DNA from: Desulfomonilia bacterium
GTDB lineage: Bacteria; Desulfobacterota; Desulfomonilia; UBA1062
NCBI GenBank assembly: GCA_050014195.1
Contig: JBEKDT010000004.1
Span: 1-64,000, forward strand
Reading direction: 5' to 3'
DNA: 64,000 nt
The translations under genes were made by a program, and so were the position numbers. This document shows, in pieces, positions 47,721 through 64,000 of the stretch (within the stretch, counting starts at the first letter, position 1; each line of letters begins with the position of its first letter). The notes under the pieces are model-generated. The model did not search any database. It was not told the DNA's origin and saw only the letters and a program-made list of their open reading frames with translations.

Positions 47721-47852
47721 GCACAGGGCATACTACCCGGAAAAGTAAAATCCCACAATCTTCCCATAGTGTCTTCACATTTTCTCCACAAACAACTGAT
47801 ATATTCCCGTCATGATCAGGAAAGAGGATACGAAGCGGGTATAAGATCCATG
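47721..47852 (+). promoter_or_regulatory. Promoter block with four 11-bp-phased BaeR-type boxes, duplicated at 50597-50729
   Basis: ATCCCACA/TTCCCATA/TCTTCACA/TCTCCACA at 47750, 47761, 47772, 47783; the block ends AAGATCC-ATG. Confidence 0.7.
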
Positions 47853-48015
47853 CATGAACAGAACGGAAATTTGAGAGCATCAACCTCCTCCCCTCCAACC
47901 CTGCATGGGCGGGAATCCGGGAAATATCGCCACTCCCGGGTTCCCGCTGCTCATCTAAGGGGTACGGACTGTCGTTGTCATGAACCGTATGCAAACAAAT
48001 GAAAGGGGCATCTCT

Positions 48016-48699: not shown

Positions 48700-48791
48700 A
48701 AAACGCGCAGAGCGATATCCGGGACTATGAATAATCTTGATGATTAATAAGTTACTCGTCAATGAATTCACCAGTGAAAGGTATGGAGATA

Positions 48792-48992
48792 ATGAAGAGA
48801 CGTAAGAGATATACCGGTGACTTCAAGGCACAGGTGGTGACTGAATATATCAAGGGTGAAAAAACATTGGATGAAATTGCAGTTGAGCACAGTGTCCACC
48901 CCAACCAGATCAAGAATTGGAAATCCCTCCTGTTTAAGCGTGCCCACGAGGTGCTCGATGACAGGAGATCGCAGACCGACCAGGATCTCTAG
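48792..48992 (+). CDS. IS3-family OrfA-like helix-turn-helix protein, orphan
   Basis: RRKRYTGDFKAQVV ... TLDEIAVEHSVHPNQIKNWK; no OrfB/DDE region follows. Confidence 0.75.
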   Translation: MKRRKRYTGDFKAQVVTEYIKGEKTLDEIAVEHSVHPNQIKNWKSLLFKRAHEVLDDRRSQTDQDL

Positions 48993-49122: not shown

Positions 49123-50184
49123 ATGGTTAGCGGGATAAGTAGTTCCAACAGTTACATGAACTATATGCTGTTCGAAGCCCTTGATACCGACGGCAGCGGC
49201 GGTATCTCCCAATCGGAGCTGGATACCTGGGCCAAGAAGATGTCCAGTGTGACCGGCACAACCATCGACACCACCAATGCCGTATCCACCTACGGCACCG
49301 ACGGGGTGCTGAGCGCCGATGAATTGAATTCCTTCATGGAATCAACCATGCAGCAGGGTATGGGGTTTGCAGGCATACCACCTGCCTCTCAGGATTCATC
49401 GGACAGTTCTGGGTCCACGGATCTGTTCAATGCCATCACCGGCGGCAGCAGCCAGATGACACAGGCACAGCTGGATACATGGGCAACGGATATGTCCAAG
49501 GCGACCGGCCAAACCATTGATACCACCAATGCCATCTCCACCTACGACACCAACGGTGACGGGACACTGAGCGCCTCGGAGTTCCAGTCATTCCTGAATG
49601 CCAGCGGCATACAGCCGCCTACCTCTCAGGATTCATCGAACAGTTCTGCGTCAACGGATCTGTTCAATGCCATCACCGGCGGCAGCAGCCAGATGACACA
49701 GGCACAGCTGGATACCTGGGCATCGGATATGTCTCAGGCGACCGGCCAAACCATTGATACCACCAATGCCATCTCCACCTACGACACCAACGGTGACGGG
49801 ACACTGAGCTCCTCGGAGTTTCAGTCGTTCCTTGATGCAAACGGCATATCGGCCCCGCAAAACTTCGGGATGGCACCTCCGCCGCCACCGCCTCCGTCCT
49901 CGGGATCATCCGAGACGAGCAGCTCCACGACAAGCTCCACATCCAGTGCCGACAGTATCATCTCCAAGTATGATACCAACGGCGACGGTGTACTGAGCGC
50001 CTCGGAACTGCAGGCGTATCTTGACGATAACAGTTCGACATCATCGACAACGTCGTCAAGCCTTGTTGAGCAGGCGCTGTCTGCGTATCTGATGAATATG
50101 GGGCTGTCTTCGAGTTCGATGGGGCTTTATATGAACTCCTCTCTCTATGGGAGTGCTTACTCATCTGTTGATTACTTGGCATAA
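49123..50184 (+). CDS. Ser/Thr-rich multi-EF-hand protein with an internal 237-bp duplication
   Basis: DTDGSGGISQSE, DTNGDGTLSASE, DTNGDGTLSSSE and DTNGDGVLSASE loops; duplicated 79-aa unit; poly-Pro; no Sec signal. Confidence 0.88.
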   Translation: MVSGISSSNSYMNYMLFEALDTDGSGGISQSELDTWAKKMSSVTGTTIDTTNAVSTYGTDGVLSADELNSFMESTMQQGMGFAGIPPASQDSSDSSGSTDLFNAITGGSSQMTQAQLDTWATDMSKATGQTIDTTNAISTYDTNGDGTLSASEFQSFLNASGIQPPTSQDSSNSSASTDLFNAITGGSSQMTQAQLDTWASDMSQATGQTIDTTNAISTYDTNGDGTLSSSEFQSFLDANGISAPQNFGMAPPPPPPPSSGSSETSSSTTSSTSSADSIISKYDTNGDGVLSASELQAYLDDNSSTSSTTSSSLVEQALSAYLMNMGLSSSSMGLYMNSSLYGSAYSSVDYLA

Positions 50185-50242: not shown

Positions 50243-50458
50243 AAAAATGAAATACTCCCTTACTTTGAGGTGAGCGACATCAAGGAAAAGATAAACGGCG
50301 TGTGCCGCGATCCCAATGACGACATGTTCCTTGCCGTTGCCGTCAATGCCAAGGCAGCCTTTCTTGTGACCGGCGACAAGGATTTGCTGGAGTTGCGGAA
50401 ATACAAATCAATAAAAATCGTATCTCCTCAAAAGTATCTGGCACTCCTTAAAGATTGA
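50243..50458 (+). pseudogene. C-terminal remnant of a PIN-domain toxin
   Basis: EILPYFEVSDIKEKINGVCRDPNDDMFL...LVTGDKDLL aligns with the 3' half of 62972-63382; the N-terminal half and the antitoxin are absent. Confidence 0.85.
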
Positions 50459-50596
50459 AACAGGAGAGAGCGGATTTCAAACTAACTCTTAAAAACAAAG
50501 CTAAGCACCTTCCCTTTTCTCACTCAAGTTTTATCTTGCAAATAAATTAGTATGGTGTCCCCGGATTACGCGCTTTCTGAACCATGCTCTTTTCCC

Positions 50597-50729
50597 GCAC
50601 AGGGCATACTACCGGCAAGCAAAATCCCATAATCTTCCCATAGTGTCTTCATATTTTCTCCACAATCGACTGGTAAATTTCACTAGTATTGATATCGAAG
50701 AGGATACTAGGAGGAATACAAGATCCATG
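50597..50729 (+). promoter_or_regulatory. Second copy of the BaeR-box promoter block
   Basis: Boxes at 50624, 50635, 50646 and 50657; the first ~68 nt are near-identical to 47721-47790. Confidence 0.7.
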
Positions 50730-52553
50730 CAGGACCAACTGATCAATCAAATGGCCTCTTTGGAGGCATTGGTCTTCAACAAAACGACGGGTAATCATCA
50801 AGAACTTCTTGAGGAGGCGCAAAAGATTTGCACCGATATTTTGCGCGAAAATCCTGAAGATCCCGACTTCATTTGCATGCGAGGCATTATCGACTTTCAT
50901 CTTGGACAGACTAAAGAGGCAGAGGCTTGGATGGAAAAAGCCTTGATCATTGCGCCTCAATCAACCGCGATCATCTATAACTATGCCATGATACTGATGG
51001 CCCAGGAGAAGTTTGCCGTCGCTTTACCTCTCATGATGCGAGTTGTCGCTCTTAAGCCGGATCATGCCAAAGCCTATTGGCATATCGGCAACGTTTTAAG
51101 AAAAACCGGTGATTTTGCGGGCGCTTTGGCGGCTTTCAACAAAGCGCAGGAAATCAACCCGCAAGATGTTGAGACCTTAAACGATACAGGAAATACGCTG
51201 GCTGAGGCTTTGAACGATAAGGGAACTATGCTGAAAGAAATAGGCCGTCTGCCCGAAGCGACCACTTGCTACGAAGAAGCCTTGAGCCTCAATCCGAACC
51301 ATCATGGGTTCATCAATAATCTCGGCGTCATCCATTTTCTGCAAAACAATCAGGACACCGCCGAGGCATTATATAAGGCGGCTCTCACAATTCACCCAGA
51401 GTATCCCGAAGCACACAGTAATCTGGGTGGGATCCTGCGATTTAAAGGTGATCTTGATGGGGCGATCCTTCATTGCCAAAAAGCCTTGGCCTTTCGTCCG
51501 GATTATCCGGATGCTCTCAACAACCTCGGCAACGCCTTTAAGGATGCCAGACGTTTTGAGGAAGCAATTGTGGCTTATAATGAGGCTTTGCGCCTTGTAC
51601 CCGACAATGCCGAGTTTCACATGAATCTGGCGTCGGCATTGTTGGCGTTGGGGCGCTTTGACGAAGGATGGCTCGGGTTTGAATGGCGCTGGAAATCGAA
51701 GCAACTTAGCCATACCTTCCGGGATTTTGCCCAGCCTAAGTGGCAAGGCGAGGCCGGCGAAGGGCGAACCCTTCTGATCCACGCCGAGCAGGGATTCGGA
51801 GACACCTTGCAATTCTGCCGCTATGCGCCTCTCGTCAAAGAGCGCGGGTTCCATGTAGTTATGGAGGTGCCGCCGCCGTTGAAGCGGATCATTCAATCTT
51901 TGGATGGCGTCGAAAAGGTTGTGACCACAGGCGATGTCCTTCCGCCTTTCGATTTTCACTGTCCAATGATGAACCTGCCCTTGGCATTTCATACGACTGT
52001 CGAGACGATACCGGCCAAGCTTCCCTATCTGAGCCCTGACCCAGCCGATTTGGCAAAATGGCGGGATCGAGTTGCGACCTTGGCGAACGACGCTTTAAAA
52101 GTCGGCCTCGTATGGGCGGGAAGATCACGCACCCACTCGCCCGATCTTATTGCGACGGAACAGAAAAGATCCATTGCGCAAGAGGTCCTGGCTCCTTTGA
52201 TGGTTGTGCCGAACGTGCAACTCTTCTCCCTGCAGAAAGAAGGAACGCGGGCCCCTGACGCTTTTCCTCTGATTGATTGGATGGCAGAATGCCACGATTT
52301 TGCCGATACGGCGGCACTCATCATGAATCTGGATCTTGTAATCAGCGTCGACACGGCCGTCGCTCATTTGGCTGGAGCCTTGGGCAAGCCGGTGTGGCTG
52401 TTGAACCGGTTCAACAGCTGCTGGCGCTGGCTCGCCGAACGCGACGACAGCCCTTGGTATCCCGGCACACTCCGTCTTTTTCACCAGAAAGAAATGGGTA
52501 ATTGGGATGAAGTCGTAATGCGTGTCCGCGCAGCCTTAGCGGAAAGGCATTGA
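50727..52553 (+). CDS. TPR-repeat protein with C-terminal glycosyltransferase (GT9-like) domain
   Basis: Multiple TPRs; EQGFGDTLQFCRY, KVGLVWAG, DFADTAA...LDLVISVDTAVAHLAGALGKP, WRW...DSPWYP; start at ATG 50727 (SD AGGAGG). Confidence 0.88.
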   Translation: MQDQLINQMASLEALVFNKTTGNHQELLEEAQKICTDILRENPEDPDFICMRGIIDFHLGQTKEAEAWMEKALIIAPQSTAIIYNYAMILMAQEKFAVALPLMMRVVALKPDHAKAYWHIGNVLRKTGDFAGALAAFNKAQEINPQDVETLNDTGNTLAEALNDKGTMLKEIGRLPEATTCYEEALSLNPNHHGFINNLGVIHFLQNNQDTAEALYKAALTIHPEYPEAHSNLGGILRFKGDLDGAILHCQKALAFRPDYPDALNNLGNAFKDARRFEEAIVAYNEALRLVPDNAEFHMNLASALLALGRFDEGWLGFEWRWKSKQLSHTFRDFAQPKWQGEAGEGRTLLIHAEQGFGDTLQFCRYAPLVKERGFHVVMEVPPPLKRIIQSLDGVEKVVTTGDVLPPFDFHCPMMNLPLAFHTTVETIPAKLPYLSPDPADLAKWRDRVATLANDALKVGLVWAGRSRTHSPDLIATEQKRSIAQEVLAPLMVVPNVQLFSLQKEGTRAPDAFPLIDWMAECHDFADTAALIMNLDLVISVDTAVAHLAGALGKPVWLLNRFNSCWRWLAERDDSPWYPGTLRLFHQKEMGNWDEVVMRVRAALAERH

Positions 52554-52732
52554 TCCGGGATCTCGGCTACCTGCTGGAGCTCCAGGCAATGCAGGCCAAA
52601 AGGCATGCAGGGAATCAGGAACTCGTGCTCTCCATCAACCTCGACTGGCCCATGCAGATCACGGAGACGGAGTTCTTCAGGCGGATAAAGGAAATGCCCA
52701 AGGGAAAGGTGTACGGATTTCTTTCCAGATAA
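52544..52732 (+). pseudogene. 3' remnant of a Fic gene
   Basis: Aligns with 56851-57039 (ALIRDxGYL ... LSINLDWPMQITETEFFRRIKEMPKGKVYGFLSR). Confidence 0.9.
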
Positions 52733-52962
52733 CTGAGGGGGGAATCGAGGATGGATTTTGGGGAACCCGACGATATAAAACCAGTATGGATGTCCCCAGA
52801 TTTCCATACCTGACCAGCTTATCACAAGAAAAGGGGACAAACCATTTTCGAGAATTAATTAATAGAAATGGTCTCTTACACCATTATTACCCATGTAGAC
52901 AACAAACGTGCTTCACTCGTCATCTAAATTATAAAACAATCGAAAATTACAGGGAGAGACAC

Positions 52963-53394
52963 ATGAAAAAACTATATCTGTTAACAATATTTCTGGCATT
53001 AGTGATTATCACCCCTATCCCTGCAATGGCAGGGGTAAGGGTGGGTGTAAACATCGGTCTTCCTCCTATAGTAATCGGAATCGGAGGAGGACCTCCGGAT
53101 CTGGTGGAAGTACCGGATACAGACCGAGTTTACGTCGCCCCTGATGTCAACGTCGATCTGTTCTTCTGGAACGGCTGGTGGTGGCGTCCCTATGAAGGTC
53201 GCTGGTATCGCTCCCATTATTACGATCGGGGCTGGGCCCATTACAACAGAGTCCCAAGGTTCTACAATCATGTGGACCAGGGCTGGAGAAACAATTACAG
53301 AGCCCATAGCTGGCACGGCCGCCAATGGAACTACCAACGCATCCCCAGCCGTCAGGTCCAGGGACAGGGACAACAGGGACGCGATAGACACTAA
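52963..53394 (+). CDS. Secreted Trp/Tyr/Arg-rich protein (YXWGXW-like), copy A
   Basis: Signal peptide ending AMA; GVRVGVNIGLPP; FFWNGWWWRPYEGRWYRS. Confidence 0.8.
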   Translation: MKKLYLLTIFLALVIITPIPAMAGVRVGVNIGLPPIVIGIGGGPPDLVEVPDTDRVYVAPDVNVDLFFWNGWWWRPYEGRWYRSHYYDRGWAHYNRVPRFYNHVDQGWRNNYRAHSWHGRQWNYQRIPSRQVQGQGQQGRDRH

Positions 53395-53523
53395 AGGAAG
53401 GATCGCATAAGGAGAAGAAGGGGTGATAATGAAAATAGGGGTCAGTGCGTAAATAGTCTCTGCCTCCTATTTCTAAGATCAGAAAATAAATCTGTCCCCT
53501 TTCCCCCCCCTTTTCCCCCAGGA

Positions 53524-54081
53524 TCAGTCCAGAACGCCTTCGTAGTTTGCGTCTGCCCAATCTGCGATCTGTACGACAAGCTTAGCTACTTCCATTGCAT
53601 CAATACCCGTTATGATAATGGCCCCTTCCCTGGCGAACCCACCTTCAGTATAGAAAATATTAGGGAGTATCCCCTCATTCATGCACCTTTTCAATATGGT
53701 GTCGAGGGTATCACCTTCTCGAATCTCAAGGTGTGCGATCGAGATACCATGGCCCTTGATCAGATCAACGAGCTTGGGATCATATTTTATTTCCATTGCC
53801 GCTCGAATCTCCGGTGTGATCTTCCTCACCTCCAGCAGGATCAGGGCCGTATATTTTGAAGCACCCCATGCCGGATATGCCGGGGCTGTGATCCTGCCGA
53901 ACACCGCTGTGAGTCTGCCCGGGATACCCGCTATGTCTTCCGGCGTCCTTGCATCCTTTGCAGCCATTACCAGGTTGCTCCGGATCTCGGGGAGGAGAGC
54001 GTATGTTTTGGGAGAGGCAGTTAACAACGCCACGGCTTCAACCATTTGTCCCATCACATAGTACCGATCATTATCCATCAT
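53524..54081 (-). CDS. Stand-alone ThiN-type (thiamine-phosphate synthase family) domain protein
   Basis: LLPEIRSNLVMA, DIAGIPGRL, PAWGASKYTA, IRAAMEIKY, PNIFYTEGGFAREG. Confidence 0.75.
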   Translation of the reverse strand: MMDNDRYYVMGQMVEAVALLTASPKTYALLPEIRSNLVMAAKDARTPEDIAGIPGRLTAVFGRITAPAYPAWGASKYTALILLEVRKITPEIRAAMEIKYDPKLVDLIKGHGISIAHLEIREGDTLDTILKRCMNEGILPNIFYTEGGFAREGAIIITGIDAMEVAKLVVQIADWADANYEGVLD

Positions 54082-54156
54082 GCGTCTTCCTGTCGTTTCT
54101 TAGCTATTCTTAGCTATAGGTTCATTTATGAGAGACCTTTGCATAACCCTATGTCC

Positions 54157-54182
54157 GTCATTGCGAGCGTAGCGAAGCAATC
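54157..54182. repeat. Half of a GTCATTGCGAG...GCAATC palindromic intergenic element
   Basis: GTCATTGCGAGCGTAGCGAAGCAATC; the inverted partner is not seen. Confidence 0.55.
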
Positions 54183-54277
54183 CCTGCATCTTGGCACAGG
54201 TCGGTACTTTCTCAGATGCCTGTTCAATCAGATGATCCCCCGCAGTTTGCTGTGCCGGGTTTCATTTCCCATCCATT

Positions 54278-55501
54278 TTACTGGTCCTGCTGGGTTCTGA
54301 TGAGAGGGGATTCCTTCATCAGGAAGGCCAGGAGGATGTTCGCAAAAGTCATGGCCACGAAAATGATCATGAAAGGTGTCATGGAGCCGGTCGCGGTGAT
54401 TCTGAGCTTATCCATGGCAAAGATGAAGATGATGCCCGAGATCTGGCCCGCGAGCAGGAGCATGCCCTGGGAAGAGGACTCAGGCGTGGGGTAGCTGATT
54501 TCAGCGCCGTACTGGAAACCGATGGGACCCGCGCTCATGATGAAGAAACCCATGACGAATCCCGAGACAAGGAGCATGGGGAAGCCGGTAGCGAAGGTGA
54601 GACCGATGAGTCCCGGGACAATGCCGATCATGGTAAGGATCAGGAGGGGTTTGCGTTTGCGGAGCTTGTCCGAGAGCAGGGGCAGGATGACTGCACCGAT
54701 GATGCCGCCGATCATCATGGCGCCCCCGATAAGGCCGGCCTGTTCAGAGTTGAAGCCGCGGGGGCTCAGGATCTGCTCAATCCAGGTGGTGACTGCATTG
54801 AACATGCCCAGGCCGAAGAAGAACAGGATAAGAAGCAGGATCATGTCCCTCTGTTTGAACAAGTGATTGATCCCTGCGAAGACGGTGACAGTGTCTTCAT
54901 CGTGATACTCCGAGGGCGACGTGGGCGGGCTGTCCTTGATGAAGACGAGGAATGCGATGGCTGCAACGACCGAGCTTATACCGTAGATCATGAGCATGCC
55001 TTTCATGGCGTAGGCCTTGAATATGAAGGGGGTTGCGGCCAGGGCGATGATGATGCCGACGTACTGGGACAGGGCGGCCAGACCTGTGGCCGTGGCACGC
55101 TCGTCGATGGGGAACCACTTGGCGCTGACCTTGGTCATGGCGTTCATGACGAACGGCTGGGCCACGGCGAGTCCGAGCTGGGAGATGAAGATGATGGTGT
55201 AGTTCGCGGCATAGATGCCCTTGAGGAGACCGAAAATGCCGGTCAGCACGGCACCGATACCAACACCGATCCTGAGGCCGTAGGTGTCGATCATGTAGGA
55301 GGCGGGGATGCACAGGAAGATATACATGATCATGAAGCTCATGGATAGCAGCCCGATCTGCATGGGGGTTACCCCGTAGAAAGCAGCCGCTTCCCCGGTT
55401 ATAGAGGCGAAGTTGACCCAGTGGACCTGCACTATGGCATTGATCAGGGCGAAAACGAAAAGTACCACCCAACGGTAACCGTACACCTTCATCTTCTCCA
55501 T
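54278..55501 (-). CDS. MFS transporter
   Basis: About 12 TM; YRWVVL, IDTYGLR, AKWFPIDERATATG, SDKLRKRKP. Confidence 0.9.
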   Translation of the reverse strand: MEKMKVYGYRWVVLFVFALINAIVQVHWVNFASITGEAAAFYGVTPMQIGLLSMSFMIMYIFLCIPASYMIDTYGLRIGVGIGAVLTGIFGLLKGIYAANYTIIFISQLGLAVAQPFVMNAMTKVSAKWFPIDERATATGLAALSQYVGIIIALAATPFIFKAYAMKGMLMIYGISSVVAAIAFLVFIKDSPPTSPSEYHDEDTVTVFAGINHLFKQRDMILLLILFFFGLGMFNAVTTWIEQILSPRGFNSEQAGLIGGAMMIGGIIGAVILPLLSDKLRKRKPLLILTMIGIVPGLIGLTFATGFPMLLVSGFVMGFFIMSAGPIGFQYGAEISYPTPESSSQGMLLLAGQISGIIFIFAMDKLRITATGSMTPFMIIFVAMTFANILLAFLMKESPLIRTQQDQ

Positions 55502-55811
55502 CCTGTTCTCCTTATCATAACATCAATCTATTCACTGTCCGTCAAATGGGGTCCGAGTCGATTTACGCAAAGATTATAACAGAAAATGGACTTTGACCCT
55601 ATTTCTTTAATAGTGCTAAAACATGCTGTCCCACGGGCAAGCCCTTTGGGCTTAGCCCGTGCCACCCAGGGAACTATATTATCTATCCTGGCCACCCGCA
55701 ACGATCGGGAAACGAGATGGAAATGAAACAAGAAACAGCCAGGGTTTATCGAAAGTTAATTTTATTACAACAAATTGAATTATCTCATCAAATTATGATT
55801 TTATTTACGAC

Positions 55812-55839
55812 TTGACTTGGAAATGAACCCGGCTATAAT
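55812..55839 (+). promoter_or_regulatory. Sigma70 promoter of fic; predicts a leaderless mRNA
   Basis: TTGACT-16 nt-TATAAT, then 6 nt to ATG 55846; no SD. Confidence 0.7.
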
Positions 55840-55845
55840 TCGGGC

Positions 55846-57039
55846 ATGATCATCAGATACCACATCCCCAAGGAGTGGATCCGTTACGATACCATGGCCA
55901 TCCTCGATGAGTTGATGGGGGCCAGGTCGGCCATGATGGCGCTTACCCAGATCCCCTACCAGCGGAGCTGGGCCGCGGAGCTGCAGAAGATTCAGCTCAA
56001 GCGCGAGGTGGCAGGCACATCCAGAATCGAGGGTGCGGAATTCACGGAAAAGGAGCTGGACGCAGCGATGAGGGAGACGCCCGAGCAGCTGGAAACACGC
56101 TCGCAGAGGCAGGCCGCAGCGGCCGTAGCGACCTACCGCTGGATCGCCGGGCTTCCCGGTGAGCGCGGCGTGGATGAAGCACTGATCTTCGAGGTGCACA
56201 AACGGATCGTCACCGGGTGTGACGACGACCATTGCGCACCGGGAAAGCTGCGGGGCCGTGATGAGAATGTGACATTCGGCACACCGAGACACCGCGGGGC
56301 AACGGGCGGCCAGGAATGCGTCAGGGCCTTCCGCAAGCTGGCCGAGGCTGCGCGCACGGGGTTTCAGGATCACGACCCGCTCATCCAGGCACTGGCATTG
56401 CATTATCATGTTGCGGCAATGCATCCCTTCCTGGACGGCAACGGTCGGACTGCCCGCGCGCTCGAAGCGCTCATGCTCCAGCGGACCGGCCTGCGCGATA
56501 CATTGTTCATCGCCATGTCCAACTACTACTACGAGAACAAGACCGCCTATCTGAACGCGCTGAACGAGACGCGGGCGAAAGACCACGACCTGACCCCGTT
56601 CCTGAAGTTCGCGCTCAAGGGCATTGAAAGTCAATGCCGCAAGCTGTTCGGCGAGATACGGCAGCAGGTCGCCAAGGCGCTCTACCGGAACACCATGAAC
56701 GATCTCTTCGGACGCCTGCAATCACCGCGCAAGCGGGTGATGTCCTCGCGCCATATTCAGATTCTCAATCTGTTGCTGGACGAAGAGGAGATCTCCCTCG
56801 ATGATATTATCGATAAGATTTGGCACTTATATATGGTCAAGAATCCCCGCAAGGCCTTGATCCGTGATATCGGCTACCTGGTGGAGCTCGAGGCGGTGCA
56901 CGCTATAAGGCCTGCGGAGGATCAGGGAGTCGTGCTCTCTATCAATCTCGACTGGCCCATGCAGATCACGGAGACGGAGTTCTTCAGGCGGATAAAGGAA
57001 ATGCCCAAGGGAAAGGTGTACGGATTCCTTTCCAGATAA
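55846..57039 (+). CDS. Fic family protein
   Basis: Canonical HPFLDGNGRTAR motif; N-terminal TSRIEG inhibitory-helix-like motif. Confidence 0.93.
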   Translation: MIIRYHIPKEWIRYDTMAILDELMGARSAMMALTQIPYQRSWAAELQKIQLKREVAGTSRIEGAEFTEKELDAAMRETPEQLETRSQRQAAAAVATYRWIAGLPGERGVDEALIFEVHKRIVTGCDDDHCAPGKLRGRDENVTFGTPRHRGATGGQECVRAFRKLAEAARTGFQDHDPLIQALALHYHVAAMHPFLDGNGRTARALEALMLQRTGLRDTLFIAMSNYYYENKTAYLNALNETRAKDHDLTPFLKFALKGIESQCRKLFGEIRQQVAKALYRNTMNDLFGRLQSPRKRVMSSRHIQILNLLLDEEEISLDDIIDKIWHLYMVKNPRKALIRDIGYLVELEAVHAIRPAEDQGVVLSINLDWPMQITETEFFRRIKEMPKGKVYGFLSR

Positions 57040-57263
57040 ATAAGGAGGGAAATGGGGACGGGTTTGGGGGGACCCGACGATATAAAACCAGTATGGATGT
57101 CCCCGGATTTCCCAGCCATACCTAACCAGCTTATCACAAGAAAAGTGGACAGGCCATTTATTAGAAATAATTAATGAAAATGGCTTAAACCAATGTAGAC
57201 AACAAACGTGCTTTACTCGTCATGAGATATTATGAAACAATCGAAAATAACAGGGAGGGTCAC

Positions 57264-57746
57264 ATGAAAAAACTACATCTGTTAACAATATTTCTGGCAT
57301 TAGTGATTATCACCCCTATCCCTGCAATGGCAGGGGTAAGGGTGGGTGTAAACATCGGTCTGCCTCCTATAGTAATCGGAATCGGAGGAGGACCTCCGGA
57401 TCTGGTGGAAGTACCGGATACAGACCAAGCCTACGTGGCCCCTGATGTCAACGTCGATCTGTTCTTCTGGAACGGCTGGTGGTGGCGTCCCTATGAAGGT
57501 CGCTGGTATCGCTCCCATTATTACGATCGGGGCTGGGCCCATTACAACAGAGTCCCAAGGTTCTACAATCATGTGGATCAGGGCTGGAGAAACAATTACA
57601 GAGCCCATAGCTGGCACGGCCGCCAATGGAACTACCAACGCATCCCCAGCCGCCAGGTCCAGGGACATGGACAACAGAGACAGGGACATGGTCAACAGGG
57701 ACATGGTCAACAAGGATATGAACAACAGGGACACAATAGAAACTAA
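57264..57746 (+). CDS. Secreted Trp/Tyr/Arg-rich protein (YXWGXW-like), copy B, with expanded QGHGQ tail
   Basis: Near-identical to 52963-53394 plus 15-nt tandem repeats at the 3' end. Confidence 0.82.
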   Translation: MKKLHLLTIFLALVIITPIPAMAGVRVGVNIGLPPIVIGIGGGPPDLVEVPDTDQAYVAPDVNVDLFFWNGWWWRPYEGRWYRSHYYDRGWAHYNRVPRFYNHVDQGWRNNYRAHSWHGRQWNYQRIPSRQVQGHGQQRQGHGQQGHGQQGYEQQGHNRN

Positions 57747-57914
57747 AGGAAAGATCGCATAAGGAGAAGAAGGGGTGATAATGGAAATAGGGGTCAGTGC
57801 ATAAATGGTCTCTGACCCTTTTTTTCTTAACTCCATATTGCGTGAAGGTTGGTACTTATGCTACCAGTTGTATTAGTAACACTATGAAATTAAATATTCT
57901 TATAGGAGTAGCGT

Positions 57915-59708
57915 ATGTATCAGCTAATCAAACCAGACAATGTGCCGGAAATACTTGATCAGTCTGTAAGAAAATTTTCACAAAGACCTTTTCTTGGGAC
58001 AAAAAACAAAAAATTAAAACAGTTCGACTGGATAACCTATGCCGACTTCGGGAAACGCGTGGACAATGTAAGAAGCGGTCTGAGCCAACTGGGCATTCAG
58101 AAAGACGATGCCGTGGGAATTATCTCGAACAACAGCACAGACTGGGCGGTGTGCTTTTTCGCCACGAGCGGTCTGGGCGCCCGGTTTGTTCCCATGTACG
58201 AAGCCGAACTGGCACAGGTCTGGAAATACATTATCAATGACGCCAAAATAAAAGTGCTTTTTATCACCAAGAAAGAGATATACGCCAAAATAAAAGATTC
58301 GCTCTCTTCAATACCGACATTGCAGAAAGTCATCATCATGGAAGGCGATGGGCCGGATACGCTCTCTGATCTGGAAAAGAAAGGCGCATCCCAGAAAGTA
58401 AAAGCTATCTATCCGGATCATTCGTCCATCTGCATCCTGATCTATACCTCGGGAACAACAGGCGACCCGAAAGGCGTGCTCCTTACCCAAGGCAACATCA
58501 CGAGCAACGCCCATGCCGTAACCGAATGTTTTCCTGAAATCAATGAGAATGACACGTCCCTGTCCATCCTGCCATGGGCGCACGTCTTCGGACTCGGAGA
58601 GCTTGTGGTCTACTGCCTCCTGGGCGGGTCGACAGGTCTTGCAGAAAACGCAAGCACCATCCCCGAAGACCTGGGTCTGGTCAAGCCGACGTTCATGGTC
58701 GCCGTGCCCAGGGTCTTCAACAAGGTATATGACGGTTTATGGACGAAGATGAACGAAGAAGGCGGTCTCGCCAGGAAGCTGTTTGTCATGGGGGTGGAGA
58801 GCGCCAAAAAAAAGCGGGAGCTCGCTGCGCAGGGCAAGTCGAGTTTCTCGACGAACCTGAAGTTCAAGATTGCCGACGCAATCGTGTTCAAGAAAATCAG
58901 GGGAAGGCTCGGCGGCAGATTAAAAGGCGTCATGACGGGAAGCGCTGCGATGAATCCGGATATTTCCCACTTCTTCTGGGACATGGGGATACCGCTGTAT
59001 GACGCATACGGACTGACCGAGACCTCGCCCGGGGCGACGATGAACAACGCCACAAAATATAAGATTGGCAGTGTCGGCCCTGTCATGGGCATGTGCAGGA
59101 TCGTGATCGACAAGTCTGTAGTCGGGTCAGAGGCTACGGACGGGGAGATCATCATTTACGGGCCCAATGTCATGCAGGGATATCACAACAAGCCCGAGGC
59201 CACACAGGCCGTCATGACCTCCGACGGGGGATTCAGAACAGGAGACCGCGGACGTCTTGACAAGGACGGCTTCCTGTTTATAACCGGAAGGATCAAAGAG
59301 CAGTTCAAGCTCGAAAACGGTAAATATGTATTCCCCGCAGCCATCGAAGAAGACATCAAGCTGAACCATTACATAGAAAACGCCATGATATACGGGGAAG
59401 GCCGTGAGTATAATGTTTGCCTGGTAATCCCGGACTTCATAGCACTGGACAAATGGGCTGAAAAGAATAAATTGTCCAAGGACCATGCCGAGCTGTTGAA
59501 TCGGGAAGAGACGAAAAAATTCCTGGAGAATGAAATAATCTCTACCTTGAAGACCAAGTATGGAAGCTATGAAATACCGAGAAAATTCTTATTCATCGAT
59601 CAGCCATTCTCCATCGAGAACGGCATGCTGACCCAGACCATGAAACTCAAGAGACGTGTGGTATTTGATAAATATATGGATCAGATCAATAAGCTCTATG
59701 TTAAATAG
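57915..59708 (+). CDS. fadD: Long-chain fatty acid-CoA ligase
   Basis: IYTSGTTGDPKGV, AYGLTET, FRTGDRG, ITGRIKE, LTQTMKLKR. Confidence 0.9.
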   Translation: MYQLIKPDNVPEILDQSVRKFSQRPFLGTKNKKLKQFDWITYADFGKRVDNVRSGLSQLGIQKDDAVGIISNNSTDWAVCFFATSGLGARFVPMYEAELAQVWKYIINDAKIKVLFITKKEIYAKIKDSLSSIPTLQKVIIMEGDGPDTLSDLEKKGASQKVKAIYPDHSSICILIYTSGTTGDPKGVLLTQGNITSNAHAVTECFPEINENDTSLSILPWAHVFGLGELVVYCLLGGSTGLAENASTIPEDLGLVKPTFMVAVPRVFNKVYDGLWTKMNEEGGLARKLFVMGVESAKKKRELAAQGKSSFSTNLKFKIADAIVFKKIRGRLGGRLKGVMTGSAAMNPDISHFFWDMGIPLYDAYGLTETSPGATMNNATKYKIGSVGPVMGMCRIVIDKSVVGSEATDGEIIIYGPNVMQGYHNKPEATQAVMTSDGGFRTGDRGRLDKDGFLFITGRIKEQFKLENGKYVFPAAIEEDIKLNHYIENAMIYGEGREYNVCLVIPDFIALDKWAEKNKLSKDHAELLNREETKKFLENEIISTLKTKYGSYEIPRKFLFIDQPFSIENGMLTQTMKLKRRVVFDKYMDQINKLYVK

Positions 59709-60024
59709 GATTTTTATTTCGATCCTTTTTTTGTGATCAGGGAATAAAGGGGACGTTTCTCTTTTATCTATAAAAAAATGGAAGCGTCCCCTTTTCCTTC
59801 CGCTTCTTGATATCCCTGGATTTCTTCCTGTGTGTTGCTTTTGCCCGAAGGGATTCCTATATAGTTGTCAAAAGCAAAAGAGGGATTGATGAAACGGAAA
59901 GCATCAGGAACCGGGATGAATGGGGTAGCGGACAGTCTTGGAGCCATCATATTTCACAAGCATGTCCCCATGCTTTCCGTTGGGTCATAGGAGGCGGCTC
60001 CATCAGCCTGAAAGGAGAACGAAA

Positions 60025-60312
60025 ATGGCATATGGTATCGTACATTACTTTCCGGGCGGCACGAAGGAGCAGTACGAGGCGTCAATTGCAGCGGTGCATC
60101 CCGGCAGAGATAAACTGCCGAAAGGCCAGATCTTCCACGCGGCCGGCCCATCGGCTGGAGGCTGGACGATTGTGGCGGTACATGAATCCAAGGCGAGTTG
60201 GGAGGAGTTCCGCGACGGCATCCTGATGCCCCGGATGAAACAGGGCATCAAAGGAGGCTTCACCACGCCACCCCAGGAAACGCCCTTTGAGGTCCACAAC
60301 CTGAAGCCGTAA
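60025..60312 (+). CDS. Small hypothetical protein (dimeric alpha-beta barrel-like)
   Basis: SD AAGGAG; MAYGIVHYFPGGTKEQYE ... HAAGPSAGGW.IVAVHES..SWEEFRD. Confidence 0.8.
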   Translation: MAYGIVHYFPGGTKEQYEASIAAVHPGRDKLPKGQIFHAAGPSAGGWTIVAVHESKASWEEFRDGILMPRMKQGIKGGFTTPPQETPFEVHNLKP

Positions 60313-60496
60313 CGCTGTTTGGGATCGTTTGCGGCATTCGTTCAGACCGCCGGTACAGTGATCGGCAGAGTGAGAATAATGCTGCAGCGGTGGGTTATAG
60401 GTTAGCATGGATAAATGGGCACAGAGACTATTTATAAGTGATAATTCTTAAAAATGGTCTCTGACCATATTTTCTCGAAGCGGTATGGAGGTTTCC

Positions 60497-60832
60497 ATGA
60501 AGATACTTATTAAGTGGCTTCTGATGACGGCGTCGATCATGATCACTGCCTATCTGCTGCCCGGTGTTTCGGTCCAGAGCTTCGGGACAGCACTGGTGAC
60601 GGCCCTGGTGCTCGGGCTCATCAATGCCGTGCTGCGGCCCATCCTGGTTGTGCTGACCTTTCCTCTCACCATTATCACGCTGGGGCTCTTCATCCTTGTC
60701 CTGAACGGTTTGCTCGTGCTCCTGACGAGCGCCATCGTGACCGGGTTTTCCGTCATGAATATCTGGTGGGCAATGCTTTTCAGTGTTGTCTTTTCAGTAA
60801 TAAGCTTTGTGTTACATCAGATCTTCACCTGA
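60497..60832 (+). CDS. Phage holin family / YvlD-like 4-TM membrane protein
   Basis: LLPGV, ALVLGLINAVLRPIL..LTFPLTIITLGLF.LVLNG. Confidence 0.88.
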   Translation: MKILIKWLLMTASIMITAYLLPGVSVQSFGTALVTALVLGLINAVLRPILVVLTFPLTIITLGLFILVLNGLLVLLTSAIVTGFSVMNIWWAMLFSVVFSVISFVLHQIFT

Positions 60833-60951
60833 TAGCCTATGAAGAGGGACGCCATAAAGAAATCTGTCGCCTTTTTCCTACCTGACCCCATTTTTCGGAA
60901 TGGTTTACAACTATCGGGGATAGACGGGTTTTACCGATAAGAAAAGAACTG

Positions 60952-61197
60952 ATGGAAGAGGACCTCAAAAAGAAGATCGAAGAAATAACAGCCAGAATGG
61001 ACTGTCCCAAAGGATTCAAATGCGCAAAAGGTGGTTTTGAACGTCTCTGCAAGACAAGTAATCATTTTGGTCTCGAAAACCATTTTGACTGTCTTGAGGA
61101 AAAGCCCATGCAGTGTCCCTTTGCATTTCTATTTGGGTTAAAGTACCTATGTCAATGCCCACTCAGGGTGTATCTCGCAAAGAATTTAAAAAAGTAG
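60952..61197 (+). CDS. Cys-rich small hypothetical protein
   Basis: CPKGFKC...LCK...CLE...CPF...CQCPLRVY, 7 Cys in 81 aa. Confidence 0.75.
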   Translation: MEEDLKKKIEEITARMDCPKGFKCAKGGFERLCKTSNHFGLENHFDCLEEKPMQCPFAFLFGLKYLCQCPLRVYLAKNLKK

Positions 61198-61372
61198 GGC
61201 AGCTACGATTCTTAAGAAATAGATTGACTTAGAAAATGGTCTCTGACCCCATTTCTTCCAACTTGTTCCCTGAGGCAAGGAGAGGTAATATCTCACCGAT
61301 GAATTGATTGAAACGGCTGGGGCTTCACCTTACCGGGCTTGCCCGCCGCACTGCATTTAAAAGGACGAGACC

Positions 61373-62422
61373 ATGTTTAAGACAAGAATGACAGAGATGT
61401 TTGGGATTAAGCATCCGATCATGCTCGCCGGGATGAATTGGATAACGGAACCGAAACTGGTGTCAGCGGTATGCAATGCCGGCGGTCTGGGCATTCTGGC
61501 CATTGCGCGCTGCACCCCGAAAGAGGCGAGGGAACTGATCCGCCGGATCAGGGACATGACGGACAAACCCTTCGGGATAAACCAGATCCTCATCGGGCCG
61601 GGGGCCAGGGAGAATCTCGAGGCGGCCATCGACGAGAAAGTCCCCATAATCAACTACTCCCTGGGCAAGCCATGGTTTGTCGAAGCGGTTCACGCCTACG
61701 GGGGCAAGGTCATCGGCACCATCGCCATCGCAAAGCACGCTGCAAAGGCCGTGCAGGTTGGGTGCGACGCCCTGGTCGTCACCGGGCACGAGGCAGCGGG
61801 CCATGGCGCTGCAGCCACATCGATGGTCCTCATCCCCATAGTGGCGAGTATGGTCAAGGTCCCGCTGATCGCGGCCGGAGGATTCTACGACGGCCGAGGC
61901 CTTGCTGCGGCTCTGTCCCTGGGCGCGGACGGCATCTCCATGGGAAGCCGTTTCATGGTGGTCAGGGAAAGCATGGTTCATGACAACTTCAAGCGCCTGT
62001 GCATCGAGGCGACCGAGCAGGATACCCTCTATGACACGGTTTTCGACGGGCTTGAAGGTCGCGTGCTGAAGACGACGGAGGCCCTGGCCATGACCAAACG
62101 TGGTTTCCCTGTGGTGGAGGCCTTCAAGAGCGCTCTCCTGGTGAAGAAGCTTATGAACCTGTCATGGCCGAAGTTCGCTGCCATCACCCTGGAAATGCTC
62201 AGGGCCGAAGAGGGGCACCCCCTCATGGTGCTGGCCCGCCAGGCCGTGGGGAACATGAAGCACCTCAAGGCCATCAACGAGGGCGATGTGGAGGGTGGCA
62301 TCCTCTTTGCCGGCCAGTGCTGCGGCGGCATTATGGACAACCCCACAGCCGGGGAACTGATCAACCGCATCATCGTCGAAGCGGAGGCAGTATTGTCAAA
62401 GCTGAACAGCCTGAAAGCATGA
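61373..62422 (+). CDS. Nitronate monooxygenase / FabK-like flavoprotein
   Basis: HPIMLAGM, AVCNAGGLG, TDKPFGIN, GHEAAGH, IAAGG, GADGISMGSRF, FAGQ. Confidence 0.9.
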   Translation: MFKTRMTEMFGIKHPIMLAGMNWITEPKLVSAVCNAGGLGILAIARCTPKEARELIRRIRDMTDKPFGINQILIGPGARENLEAAIDEKVPIINYSLGKPWFVEAVHAYGGKVIGTIAIAKHAAKAVQVGCDALVVTGHEAAGHGAAATSMVLIPIVASMVKVPLIAAGGFYDGRGLAAALSLGADGISMGSRFMVVRESMVHDNFKRLCIEATEQDTLYDTVFDGLEGRVLKTTEALAMTKRGFPVVEAFKSALLVKKLMNLSWPKFAAITLEMLRAEEGHPLMVLARQAVGNMKHLKAINEGDVEGGILFAGQCCGGIMDNPTAGELINRIIVEAEAVLSKLNSLKA

Positions 62423-62678
62423 TCTTGTCGAATGCTAAAAACGAGGTCACACTGGATTACAGCTGGAAGAATGCAAACACAATGGCGCCATTGAACCTCA
62501 AAAAAGCCCAACTCATGGGAACGTGAGGATTATAGACCATTTATGAGAGATTATTCAGATAAAAAAATTGATAGAGGCAATGGTCTCCGACCCCATTTTA
62601 TTTCCATATGGTATCCCCGGATTTTCACCCCTAAATAATTCTCAATTCAAGGCCTGACCCCAATCCCCCTTTCTCCTC

Positions 62679-62707
62679 TTGCATCTAAACAGATAATAAG
62701 GTATCCT
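62679..62707 (+). promoter_or_regulatory. Sigma70 promoter of the TA operon with overlapping palindrome
   Basis: TTGCAT-17 nt-TATCCT; AAGG-TAT-CCTT palindrome spans the -10 box. Confidence 0.6.
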
Positions 62708-62729
62708 TACTTAAAGGGGGTAAGAAAGT

Positions 62730-62975
62730 ATGCTTGCCAAAAAAACATCGAAAAATCAACTGACACTGCCCAAAGAAATCGCAGATAAATTCCCCGGCGT
62801 TGACCTGTTTGACGCAAAGGTTAATAACAATCAGATAGTGCTGGTGCCGGTCAAGGTCATTCCGATTACCTCTTCCCTGGAAAGCATCCGGGATAAAATG
62901 GAGAAGCTGGGGATTACCGAAGATGATATAGCCGGTGCAGTCAAGTGGGCAAGGAAAAAGAAGAAGAAGATATGA
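62730..62975 (+). CDS. AbrB/MazE-type antitoxin
   Basis: KKTSKNQLTLPKEI ... IVLVP; ATGA overlap with the toxin. Confidence 0.88.
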   Translation: MLAKKTSKNQLTLPKEIADKFPGVDLFDAKVNNNQIVLVPVKVIPITSSLESIRDKMEKLGITEDDIAGAVKWARKKKKKI

Positions 62976-63382
62976 ACCGGGTCGTACTGGATACCAACGT
63001 ACTCGTCTCAGCAATCCTTCTCAAGGGGCACCTTGCAAAGTTCGTTGATCTCTGGAAGGAAGGTTCCATTTCACCTGCCGTCTCCAAGGAAACCTTTACT
63101 GAGTTGAGAAAAGTGCTCAGCTACCCCAAGTTTGGCCTAAAAGATGACGACATCAAAACCATTATCGAAAAGGAAATACTTCCATTCTTTGAGGTCGTCG
63201 ACATCAAAGAAAAAATTCATGCCGTATGCCGTGATCCCGATGATGACATGTTCATCTCAGTTGCATTCTATGCCAAGGCATCCCACATCGTCACCGGCGA
63301 CAAGGACTTGCTTGATCTGAAGAAATATAAATCGATAAAAATCGTATCTCCGCAGGAATACCTGGCGCTCCTTCAGAAATAG
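62972..63382 (+). CDS. PIN-domain toxin (VapC-like)
   Basis: VVLDTNVLVSA, ELRKVL.YPKF, CRDPDDD, IVTGDKDLL. Confidence 0.92.
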   Translation: MNRVVLDTNVLVSAILLKGHLAKFVDLWKEGSISPAVSKETFTELRKVLSYPKFGLKDDDIKTIIEKEILPFFEVVDIKEKIHAVCRDPDDDMFISVAFYAKASHIVTGDKDLLDLKKYKSIKIVSPQEYLALLQK

Positions 63383-63452
63383 ATTGACTCAATAAAATGG
63401 TCTCTGACCCCGTTTCCCCAGCTTGGTCCCACCCCATTCCTGCTGCACCTTT

Positions 63453-64000
63453 TCATTTTTTGAACAGGTGAATGACACAGACGCCGCCCGCGCCGACCAT
63501 ATGGGCCAAGGCATAATTGACAGGCTTCAAGATCTGCCGTTTGCCGCACTGACGGCGCATCTGCCAGAGGATCTCGGCCACCTGGCCGACACCCGTGGGT
63601 CCGACGGGATGCCCCATGGAAATCAGACCGCCGCTCGTATTGATGGGATGCTTCCCGGTAATGGCCGTCACGCCATCCTGAACCAGCTTCCCTCCCTGCC
63701 CCATTTCACATAAGCCAAGCGATTCCAGATAGATTATCTCTTCGATCGTGAAGGCGTCGTGCAGTTCGATGAGATCCAGGTCTTCCGGACCGATGCCGGC
63801 CTTTTTATAGGCTTCCTGGGAGGCCAGCCTGGTCAGGGTGATAAAGAAATCGCCATCTTCCGGCGTACTTTTATTAACAGACGCCACGACAGTCGGACAC
63901 AGTTTGTCGGTATATTTTTTTGCTGTTTCCCTTGCGCAGACGATGACCGCTGCAGCCCCATCATCCATTGGGCAGCAGTGCAGCACCGTCAGGGGATCTA
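63453..64000 (-). CDS. Thiolase family protein, C-terminal part (5' end outside the window)
   Basis: DGAAAVI, ELHDAF, INTSGGL...GHPVGPTG, HMVGAGG. Confidence 0.9.
   Translation of the reverse strand, partial: DPLTVLHCCPMDDGAAAVIVCARETAKKYTDKLCPTVVASVNKSTPEDGDFFITLTRLASQEAYKKAGIGPEDLDLIELHDAFTIEEIIYLESLGLCEMGQGGKLVQDGVTAITGKHPINTSGGLISMGHPVGPTGVGQVAEILWQMRRQCGKRQILKPVNYALAHMVGAGGVCVIHLFKK

Follow-up and report, generated by a model that had tools for sequence, protein, structure and literature searches.

Repetitive extragenic palindromes (REPs) and the REP-associated tyrosine transposases (RAYTs) generally appear in the literature as residents of the stable core genome, vertically inherited and present in high copy number. 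The locus described here lies between 50.5 and 63.4 kb of a 64,000-nucleotide stretch of a Desulfomonilia genome (the window, which is part of the 230 kb contig C4 of the genome referred to as G000, 4.2 Mb in 29 contigs), where short repeats stand between modules of one or two genes. Its closest described counterpart is the REP/REPIN–RAYT system of Escherichia and Pseudomonas (a REPIN being a REP doublet), as presented in PMC3116915, PMC3337134 and PMC5581495 (Bertels & Rainey 2011; Bertels et al. 2017). PMC5581495 reports that the 16-mers flanking the RAYTs of Groups 1 and 4 occur only about 12-14 times replicon-wide, and PMC3390384 places the mobile elements and strain-specific genes of the Pseudomonas fluorescens group in "REP deserts".

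The original prediction regarded the locus as an integron-like array of gene cassettes delimited by one kind of polar repeat, and moved by an enzyme acting in trans. We consider that it is probably a REP/RAYT-rich plasticity zone within an older acyl-CoA neighbourhood, where the repeats would promote or mark rearrangements, and not a machine for site-specific cassette capture, which is unproven.

The repeats of the zone are of several kinds. The hairpin family A is found at 52865, 55583, 57802, 60451, 61233, 62577 and 63394, and also at 53451 in degenerate form; copies of family B, GTATGG(A)TGTCCCCGGATT, lie at 50550, 52784, 57091 and 62606; the other unit types are ATAAATCTGTCCCCTTT at 53486, GCGTCCCCTTT at 59784, and CCTGACCCC at 60881 and 62653. 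All the copies that had been listed beforehand were found on reading 50.2-64 kb, at most 2 nt from their predicted positions. The core 14-mer of the commonest variant (up to two mismatches) has six matches in the window, all on the + strand and all within 52.8-63.4 kb, against 0.56 expected from shuffled sequences.

Searched genome-wide with its 22-mer consensus AAAATSGWCTCTGACCCCATTT and up to three mismatches, family A gives 15 matches, of which seven are in C4:50-64 kb, and none in the reversed-sequence control; family B, searched genome-wide as GTATKG(A)TGTCCCCGGAWTT, gives 21 + 5 matches against 2 and 0 in the reversed controls, and family D gives 19 against 2, spread over about ten contigs. 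At the mismatch levels used, the genome-wide scans for types C, E and G do no better than their reversed controls (17 vs 18, 6 vs 5 and 20 vs 12), so that only their best copies are meaningful. The A and B matches are strongly clustered: 13 of the 45 lie in 50.5-63.4 kb, which is 0.3% of the genome and where about 0.14 would be expected, and 11 in C4:144.5-171.5 kb, hence 24 on two stretches of C4, the 21 others being dispersed over 14 contigs. None falls in the first 50 kb of the window (the original prediction had noticed none from 2 to 48 kb), and the even scattering through intergenic regions expected of ordinary REPs or terminators is not what is observed. According to a crude open reading frame (ORF) model, 39 of the 45 are outside long ORFs.

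All the single units across 50.5-63.4 kb are on the + strand, as predicted, but this polarity is not a general rule, since a hand count of single copies between co-oriented genes outside the window gives about six in the same sense and about four in the opposite sense. The GC skew along C4 shows no clear switch that would link the polarity of the repeats to the direction of replication. Several of the copies described as unpaired have a degenerate left arm (for instance 60413-60434 and 55544-55565).

When the copies are aligned with their upstream sequence, family A proves to form the right-hand arm of an imperfect hairpin in which a variable loop separates GGGGTCAGAGWCSATTT from AAATSGWCTCTGACCCC, and in many copies the arms read GGGGTCAGAG..ATTT / AAAT..CTCTGACCCC. 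The repeats form hairpins with arms of 17-23 nt, separated by 4-45 nt of variable sequence, and are mostly outside genes. Instead of the variants of one related element initially proposed, they are, judging from their sequences, at least five related REP-type (REPIN-like) families with a common GGGG[AT]C...A/T-rich end. This conserved end reads GGGG[AT]C / G[AT]CCCC, and family B begins with GTAT; reading the copies by eye, we found neither a GTAG nor a CGTC tetranucleotide tag at one end. Nor do the copy numbers given above for families A, B and D amount to a high-copy repeat dispersed over the chromosome. An Rfam scan of 48-64 kb with E values up to 1 assigned the repeats to no family; its only four matches were below threshold and due to chance.

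Copies of different families are found together at C4:50-66 kb, C4:144-172 kb, C22:0.5-0.8 kb and C1:471-473 kb. The cluster at C4:144-172 kb, whose genes code for a methylase, an HerA-like ATPase and radical-SAM proteins as well as for HtpG, a lytic transglycosylase and ordinary enzymes of acyl-CoA metabolism, is also where the GGGGACGGGTTC family and a RAYT relic of 47 aa occur. On the thiolase side of the first cluster, C4:65001-70000 has a GC content of 34.8%, against about 51% around it, and units of the D and GGGGACGGGTTC types occur at C4 64760, 64826 and 65882, in or near this low-GC stretch.

Family A is not confined to G000. The motif is present in 14 of the 31 relatives searched, in 9 of the 14 other genomes of the genus and in 20 of 52 genomes of the order. 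The congener G014 contains 41 near-perfect copies, paired in inverted orientation at distances of 30-110 bp. The spacers are unrelated to one another, and some pairs are nested or have stuttered ends, which is how REP doublets (REPINs) behave and not how a recombination site does. The exact 17-mer of family A also occurs in at least 120 public metagenome stretches, well beyond this lineage, and there too it is often found in inverted pairs, 40-70 nt apart (L118-L197).

The nature of the enzyme that acts on the repeats can be proposed from the genes that they flank. G000 has two Y1_Tnp genes: the one on C1 codes for an IS200 transposase (NF033573, 144 bits) and has no A or B unit within 1.5 kb, except for one 3-mismatch match; the one on C5 codes for a 155-aa protein which scores 48.6 bits with PF01797 (cut-off 23 bits), and whose translation shows HVH and RYIELNP motifs. 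The C5 gene lies between inverted copies of family B (..CCGGGGACACAATAC.. upstream and ..GTATTGTGTCCCCAGAAT.. downstream). No PF01797 match was found on C4, only the 47-aa relic mentioned above, at C4:154214-154354, outside the window; with those at C28:457-615, C22:623-745 and C13:144085-144183, the RAYT relics of G000 (33-54 aa, E 4e-8 to 5e-4) adjoin some of the repeat clusters. The 3' end of the RAYT-like ORF on C5 has an 88% match of 41 nt in the window, at 54189-54228, which tblastn did not confirm as a relic.

RAYT-like genes are present in 12 of the 15 genomes of the genus, with six matches in the relative G002. Flanks were inspected at 19 loci of the genus; they are exact inverted copies of 12-22 nt at six of them, and imperfect ones at one more, of type D. 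These flanks are of type C (AAAAGGGGACGTTT, the 59746-59795 type, G002:C10, L099), type D (AAAAAGGGGACAGATTTAT, the 53486 type, G002:C10, L105), type E (GGGTCAGGCCTC, the AGGCCTGACCCC type found at 62649), a B-like type (AAATACGGGGACAGCATAC), and the GGGGACGGGTTC type (G, GGGGACGGGTTCTCATT); the GC-rich hairpin type of 55609-55699, which is unrelated to the others, flanks a RAYT-like gene in G003:C7 (L087). The GTCCCCTTT, CTGTCCCC and CCTGACCCC types each flank a RAYT-like gene in congeners, and the sequence that the original prediction tentatively placed at the end of some Y1 transposase genes is found in the downstream flank of one of them (L088), which reads ..GGCCTGACCCC. In the case of family A, such genes come from soil and sediment metagenome contigs: a RAYT-like gene (E 1e-38 or better) stands beside the exact 17-mer in 7 of the 80 metagenome loci retrieved around it, between inverted exact copies of the AAATSGWCTCTGACCCC hairpin family in L162, L186 and L190, and with one side degenerate in L152 and L187. 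Each repeat family is thus tied, by the inverted copies around it, to a putative Y1/HUH RAYT-like gene, and the suggestion of a single-strand HUH enzyme was well founded. The cognate RAYT flanks and the 41 near-identical copies of G014 argue that the repeats are mobile elements and not mere hairpins. In G002, a RAYT-like gene with D-type flanks takes the place of the 5' half of the Fic gene, a sign that the RAYT units are mobile in their own right and disrupt genes at this locus.

The arrangement seen in the window is real. The runs that contain this stretch are peat or wetland metagenomes, and when their re-assemblies are compared with the window, contigs of X15, X16 and X19 span its junctions without differences, which argues against an assembly artefact; the comparison is confined to the parts of the window that contigs cover in a given run, and these three runs may stem from one campaign.

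Among relatives, the anchors (the EF-hand side and the thiolase gene) are shared, and the content between them differs in L051, L052, L053, L055, L062 and L063, so that gene order is not conserved. In L063 (G006), the EF-hand gene is followed by two unknown genes, FadD, two genes, a B pair and the thiolase; in L062 (G008), by one gene, FadD, two genes, a holin-like gene, enoyl-CoA hydratase (ECH), SRPBCC, one A copy and the thiolase; in G002:C10 (L051), the order is secreted protein, about 2.4 kb of other DNA, 95-aa protein, holin-like gene, AbrB-PIN, 3.9 kb of other DNA, nitronate monooxygenase (NMO) and thiolase. Within 10 kb, L053 and L055 contain none of the modules of the window. We considered a simple translocation of ECH and SRPBCC from the thiolase side of G008 to C4:153-163 kb and rejected it, the proteins being only 26% and 63% identical, respectively.

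The comparison with G002, whose modules are 83-96% identical to those of the window at the DNA level, defines 12 end-points of homology. Eleven of these are at most 25 nt from a repeat, against only 48% of the 2,452 intergenic bases (binomial P ~0.002), in agreement with the expectation that breakpoints would coincide with the repeats; the distance from the CCCC to the breakpoint varies from 0 to 25 nt. The region 62425-63429, with three stacked units, AbrB-PIN and an A copy followed by a tail of about 20 nt, is missing in G002, where NMO abuts the thiolase gene without any repeat at the junction. The unit made of the PIN end, an A copy and this tail occurs twice in the window, and the homology to G002 resumes just after the tail each time (61276 and 63430). 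The junction between the holin-like gene and AbrB and the 3' end of PIN also lack a repeat in G002, where AbrB-PIN is flanked by none on either side. The repeats can come or go on their own: the 69-bp A hairpin 60413-60482 is a clean indel, with no target duplication, between genes that are still adjacent in G002. Gene fragments (of PIN, Fic and ECH) also stand at junctions.

Contigs of the run X24 provide two variants. One lacks AbrB-PIN, and its sequence passes from 62566 to 63420 by way of one A copy and one GTCCCC-type unit of 25 nt; the other goes from 53509, just past the D unit, to 55809, without ThiN-MFS, with a side of 34 nt and undefined intervening letters. Two more joints were discarded: that from 57437 to 53137 in X16, where the 140 nt common to both sides belong to a 91% duplication, was treated as an assembly ambiguity, and that from 50567 to 61333 in X24, with a side of 24 nt, reflects only a shared B unit.

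The features of the locus are collected in Table 1. The gene content that had been read from the translations agrees with Pfam (TPR and GT9, ThiN, MFS, Fic, AMP-binding, Phage_holin_4_2, NMO, MazE/AbrB-like and PIN_3), and so do the two internal duplications with our alignments: 52544-53472 and 56851-57823 are 91% identical and end in an A hairpin, and 61211-61270 and 63371-63430 are 85% identical, the PIN stop codon included.

Table 1. Genes, repeats and duplicated segments of the locus, with the anchors on either side (window positions)
Feature	Position	Strand	Basis or remark
Left anchor: OrfA-like HTH_Tnp_1 gene; EF-hand repeat protein	48762-48992; 49123-50184	+	Pfam, synteny
PIN_3 toxin, C-terminal fragment	50270-50458	+	78% DNA identity to 63168-63373
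REP B copy, GTATGGTGTCCCCGGATT	50550-50568	+	
TPR + glycosyltransferase-9 gene	50643-52553	+	Pfam; 85% DNA paralogue on C2; 87-90% copies in G002 and G003
Duplicated segment, copy 1	52544-53474	+	91% identical to 56851-57823
Copy 1: Fic 3' fragment	52544-52732		
Copy 1: REP B	52784-52803		
Copy 1: hybrid GGGGAC/A hairpin	52834-52886		
Copy 1: 143-aa secreted protein	52963-53394		
Copy 1: degenerate A hairpin	53436-53474		
REP D copy, AAATCTGTCCCCTTT	53484-53503	+	
ThiN; MFS transporter	53524-54081; 54278-55501	-	Pfam; sole reverse-oriented module
A hairpin	55544-55604		
Hairpin GTCCCACGGGCAAGCCC..GCCCGTGCCACCC	55609-55699		About 12 genomic copies
Full-length Fic gene	55846-57039	+	Pfam
Duplicated segment, copy 2	57091-57823	+	
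Copy 2: REP B	57091-57110	+	
Copy 2: secreted protein	57266-57746	+	
Copy 2: A hairpin + T run	57790-57823	+	
Long-chain acyl-CoA synthetase, FadD-like	57915-59708	+	Also at this locus in L062 and L063 (87% and 83% aa, respectively)
Family C hairpin, AAAGGGGACGTTTC..GCGTCCCCTTT	59746-59795		20-nt arms, 85% complementary
95-aa protein, no Pfam family	60025-60312	+	Adjoins the holin-like gene in G002 too
A hairpin	60413-60472		About 69 bp, clean indel vs G002 between GCATGG and GTATGG
Phage_holin_4_2 membrane protein	60485-60832	+	Near thiolase in G002, G007 and G008
Stacked partial units: D-like AGAAATCTGTCGCCTTTTT, then A tail CCTGACCCCATTTTT	60858-60893	+	
81-aa Cys-rich protein, no Pfam family	60952-61197	+	69% DNA copies in G003
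PIN gene last ~15 nt, A copy (61233-61254), ~20-nt tail	61211-61275	+	85% identical to 63371-63430
NMO (nitronate monooxygenase/enoyl-reductase family)	61373-62422	+	96% identical to the G002 copy
ECH remnant, ribosome-binding site and first codons	62437-62470	+	Short alignment to G006
Three stacked units: A; B; E (AGGCCTGACCCC)	62577-62598; 62606-62624; 62649-62661	+	
AbrB/MazE-type antitoxin; PIN_3 toxin	62730-62975; 62945-63382	+	Pfam
A copy (63394-63415) + tail	63394-63429	+	G002 homology resumes at 63430
Right anchor: thiolase gene	63453-64000	-	Continues to ~64670 outside the window; conserved in 19/27 related loci, at least 60% aa identity

Many of the modules are functionally unrelated, as had been proposed, but FadD, NMO and the thiolase all belong to acyl-CoA metabolism; in G006:C17, NMO is followed by an enoyl-CoA hydratase gene. 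Together with the ECH remnant, these genes look like an old acyl-CoA-metabolism neighbourhood, invaded by modules and partly lost, and not like cassettes independent of one another.

On the left side, the OrfA-like HTH_Tnp_1 gene, of IS3 type, has no visible DDE partner; it occupies the same place beside the EF-hand gene in L062, L063 and G002:C10 (74-81% identity), which suggests that it is fixed and not a mobile insertion sequence (IS). The EF-hand gene contains internal tandem duplications (49217-50006), 49378-49611 and 49615-49848 being 93% identical. The TPR-GT9 paralogue is at C2:93551-95321, G002 and G003 have two copies each, and the leader of the gene (50597-50731) is 81% identical to 47721-47854 of the window. 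The GC-rich palindrome ..CATTGCGAGCGTAGCGAAGCAATCC.. lies between ThiN and MFS (54125-54198), with copies 94-97% identical on C17, C5 and C2 and in G002 and G007; in peat runs, the summed contig depth is 60-430 in the bin that contains it, against about 5-10 elsewhere, which suggests that this palindrome is common to many organisms. The Fic gene is preceded by a match to TTGACT-16-TATAAT in the promoter scan, and the Q/G/H-rich tail of the secreted protein (57670-57722) has a 51-nt in-frame length variant in one X19 contig. In the first 9,896 nt of G003:C16 (L111), at least 3.3 kb are duplicated in inverted orientation with 97-99.8% identity, and this duplication carries a homologue of the 81-aa Cys-rich protein; an A-like unit lies about 290 nt upstream of this homologue, and a further copy is on G003:C44. 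We also asked whether an IS or a composite transposon of G003:C16 ends in family A as its terminal repeat; this was rejected, the motif being inside the larger inverted duplication.

In the mechanism that we favour, each family would be the substrate of a cognate RAYT-like Y1 (HUH) single-strand DNA transposase; G000 has one intact RAYT-like gene (on C5, for family B) and several relics, the copies of the other families being orphans. REP units would pile up where insertions are tolerated. Probably, RAYT nicking and rejoining at REP hairpins, or illegitimate or homologous recombination between the short repeats, promotes or marks rearrangements. Modules of one or two genes (the toxin-antitoxin pair, Fic, TPR-GT, ThiN-MFS, small proteins) have been inserted, duplicated, truncated or deleted in the zone, within the older neighbourhood EF-hand ... 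FadD ... NMO-ECH ... thiolase. At the level of sequence comparison, we regard as established what the repeats are and that they go with RAYT-like genes, that they cluster, that they are inserted and deleted independently, and that rearrangement end-points lie at or near them; that the repeats promote or mark the rearrangements is the probable part of the argument. Several points weigh against it. The evidence is comparative throughout, and the association of breakpoints with repeats is partly trivial, since the insertion or deletion of a repeat itself creates a breakpoint; in addition, this test used hand-drawn repeat intervals and junctions that are not independent. The X24 variants come from one contig each, with sides of 30-34 nt, in a strain that is 90-95% related. 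The best NCBIfam model of the C5 protein is NF047646 (REP_Tyr_transpos), with 63.9 bits, under the cut-off of 80, and no family A-flanked RAYT was found in the genus. About 15-25 copies per family is far under the numbers of classic REPs, the strict + polarity over 13 kb is unexplained by simple accumulation, and the indel of AbrB-PIN between direct A copies fits the mobilisation of a module equally well.

A first alternative is a transposase-driven cassette system. Co-oriented REPs would then be interchangeable IS200/IS605-like ends, a mobile cassette would consist of one or more genes and a 3' REP, a RAYT acting in trans would move such modules as single-stranded DNA circles and reinsert them beside another unit, and the array would be built by capture. 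This is the only proposal that directly explains why all the single units of 50.5-63.4 kb point in the same direction and why AbrB-PIN is bounded by direct A copies, of which one is left beside the thiolase in G008 and in the X24 variant. It also accommodates the PIN end, A copy and tail found twice (61211-61275 and 63371-63430), with G002 homology that ends at the tail; the proximity of eleven breakpoints to repeats; and the frequency of RAYT-like genes in the genus. We nevertheless consider it unlikely. None of the modules turned up again with identical ends elsewhere, at an unrelated site of a genome, and precise cassettes with identical ends in other contexts were not observed, AbrB-PIN having an A copy in G000 and none in G002. 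The modules contain gene fragments, one end of a duplication is in coding DNA, different families would need different RAYTs while G000 has one intact gene, repeats insert alone between genes that stay adjacent, their orientation is mixed outside the window, and the distance from the CCCC to the breakpoint is variable. An autonomous IS200/IS605 element, with tnpA and possibly tnpB between hairpin ends, is not found on C4 either, in the absence of any PF01797 match. If true, this co-oriented-REP arrangement would be the Y1-transposase counterpart of the integron cassette system.

At the other extreme, the repeats could be passive passengers (terminators, mRNA-stabilising hairpins or neutral junk) in a locus that varies only by homologous recombination in its conserved flanks and by ordinary illegitimate recombination, which is, in our opinion, also rather improbable. 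By eye, 57790-57830 and 59746-59800 do look like terminators, with a hairpin followed by a T run at 57790-57823 and by TTTT at 59746-59795; on its left, the large duplication ends within coding DNA, at a microhomology junction, TTGATCCG; the NMO-to-thiolase junction of G002 has no repeat; and conserved anchors with differing content are as flank-mediated exchange predicts. However, most copies lack a T run, the terminator-like sites are no more numerous than expected (13 vs 13.9), only one of them (60454-60468) overlaps a repeat, a scan for promoter consensus sequences shows no enrichment, the cognate RAYT flanks and the copies of G014 are those of mobile elements, and breakpoints are nearer to repeats than random intergenic positions are. 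As to an array served by an integron-like or Xer-type tyrosine recombinase, it would account for the short and mostly co-oriented modules with a toxin-antitoxin pair, as in chromosomal integrons, and for imperfect inverted ends around a variable centre, like those of attC sites, but it is close to refuted. The best TIGR02249 match for IntI in the whole genome reaches 82.7 bits, the cut-off being 265 bits; none of the 16 PF00589 (Phage_integrase) matches is on C4; no R''/R' pair (RYYYAAC/GTTRRRY, 35-130 nt apart) exists on either strand of 13 intergenic regions, for a mean of 0.41 in shuffled sequences, so the original prediction was right that the sites lack attC boxes; and the repeats flank Y1 genes, not tyrosine recombinase genes. 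With several repeat families, independent indels of repeats and gene fragments at junctions as well, the integron-like cassette capture first put forward is not upheld.

Regarding known systems, our literature searches, of partial coverage, brought up no paper that describes REPs or RAYTs from Syntrophaceae or Smithella or that presents REPs at the boundaries of gene modules. The locus has in common with chromosomal integrons and clusters of attC sites lacking integrases (CALINs) the co-oriented short modules, the toxin-antitoxin pair, the 3' repeats with inverted ends and a content that varies between relatives; it differs from integrons in having no IntI, attI or attC boxes, modules with their own upstream regions, gene fragments at junctions, and several repeat families that also occur as single copies beside HtpG and acyl-CoA enzymes. 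Xer/dif sites have a central region of 6-8 nt, unlike the 4-45 nt of variable sequence that separate the arms here. The minimal mobile elements of Neisseria, with Correia and dRS3/NIME repeats, also combine conserved flanks, alternative content and small repeats at junctions, with different repeat families and enzymes. The likeness to IS200/IS605 elements and to palindrome-associated transposable elements (PATEs) lies in the Y1 HUH enzyme, the subterminal hairpins on one strand, the strand polarity and the lack of target duplication at the 69-bp indel; unlike IS200/IS605, the window has no transposase between ends, its elements are hairpins of 50-110 bp or single units of about 20 nt, and the IS200 transposase on C1 is not associated with A or B units.

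The resemblance is closest with REP/REPIN–RAYT systems, as the papers cited above describe them: imperfect palindromes that are short and extragenic, a long hairpin formed by inverted doublets, stacked clusters, a small Y1/HUH gene between inverted copies of its own repeat, and several families per genus, each with its RAYT. The differences are that families here have 15-40 copies and not hundreds, that the spacer between arms varies in length and sequence, and that a genome can have many families and several RAYT-like genes (six matches in G002), one of which landed in Fic, an IS-like behaviour. In addition, the repeats end in GGGG[AT]C, unlike the REPs with GTAG or CGTC tags of Di Nocera et al. 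2013 (PMC3733652). Contrary to the REP deserts of Pseudomonas (PMC3390384), it is in variable regions that the copies are concentrated. The long-standing question whether RAYT/REP systems only litter the genomes in which they occur, or are a driving force in the gain, loss and shuffling of genes, could be tested on this locus and its relatives, since in this uncultured, peat-dwelling lineage of Syntrophaceae type the Pseudomonas pattern is reversed, many low-copy REP families crowding the most variable stretches, at the ends of differences in gene content.

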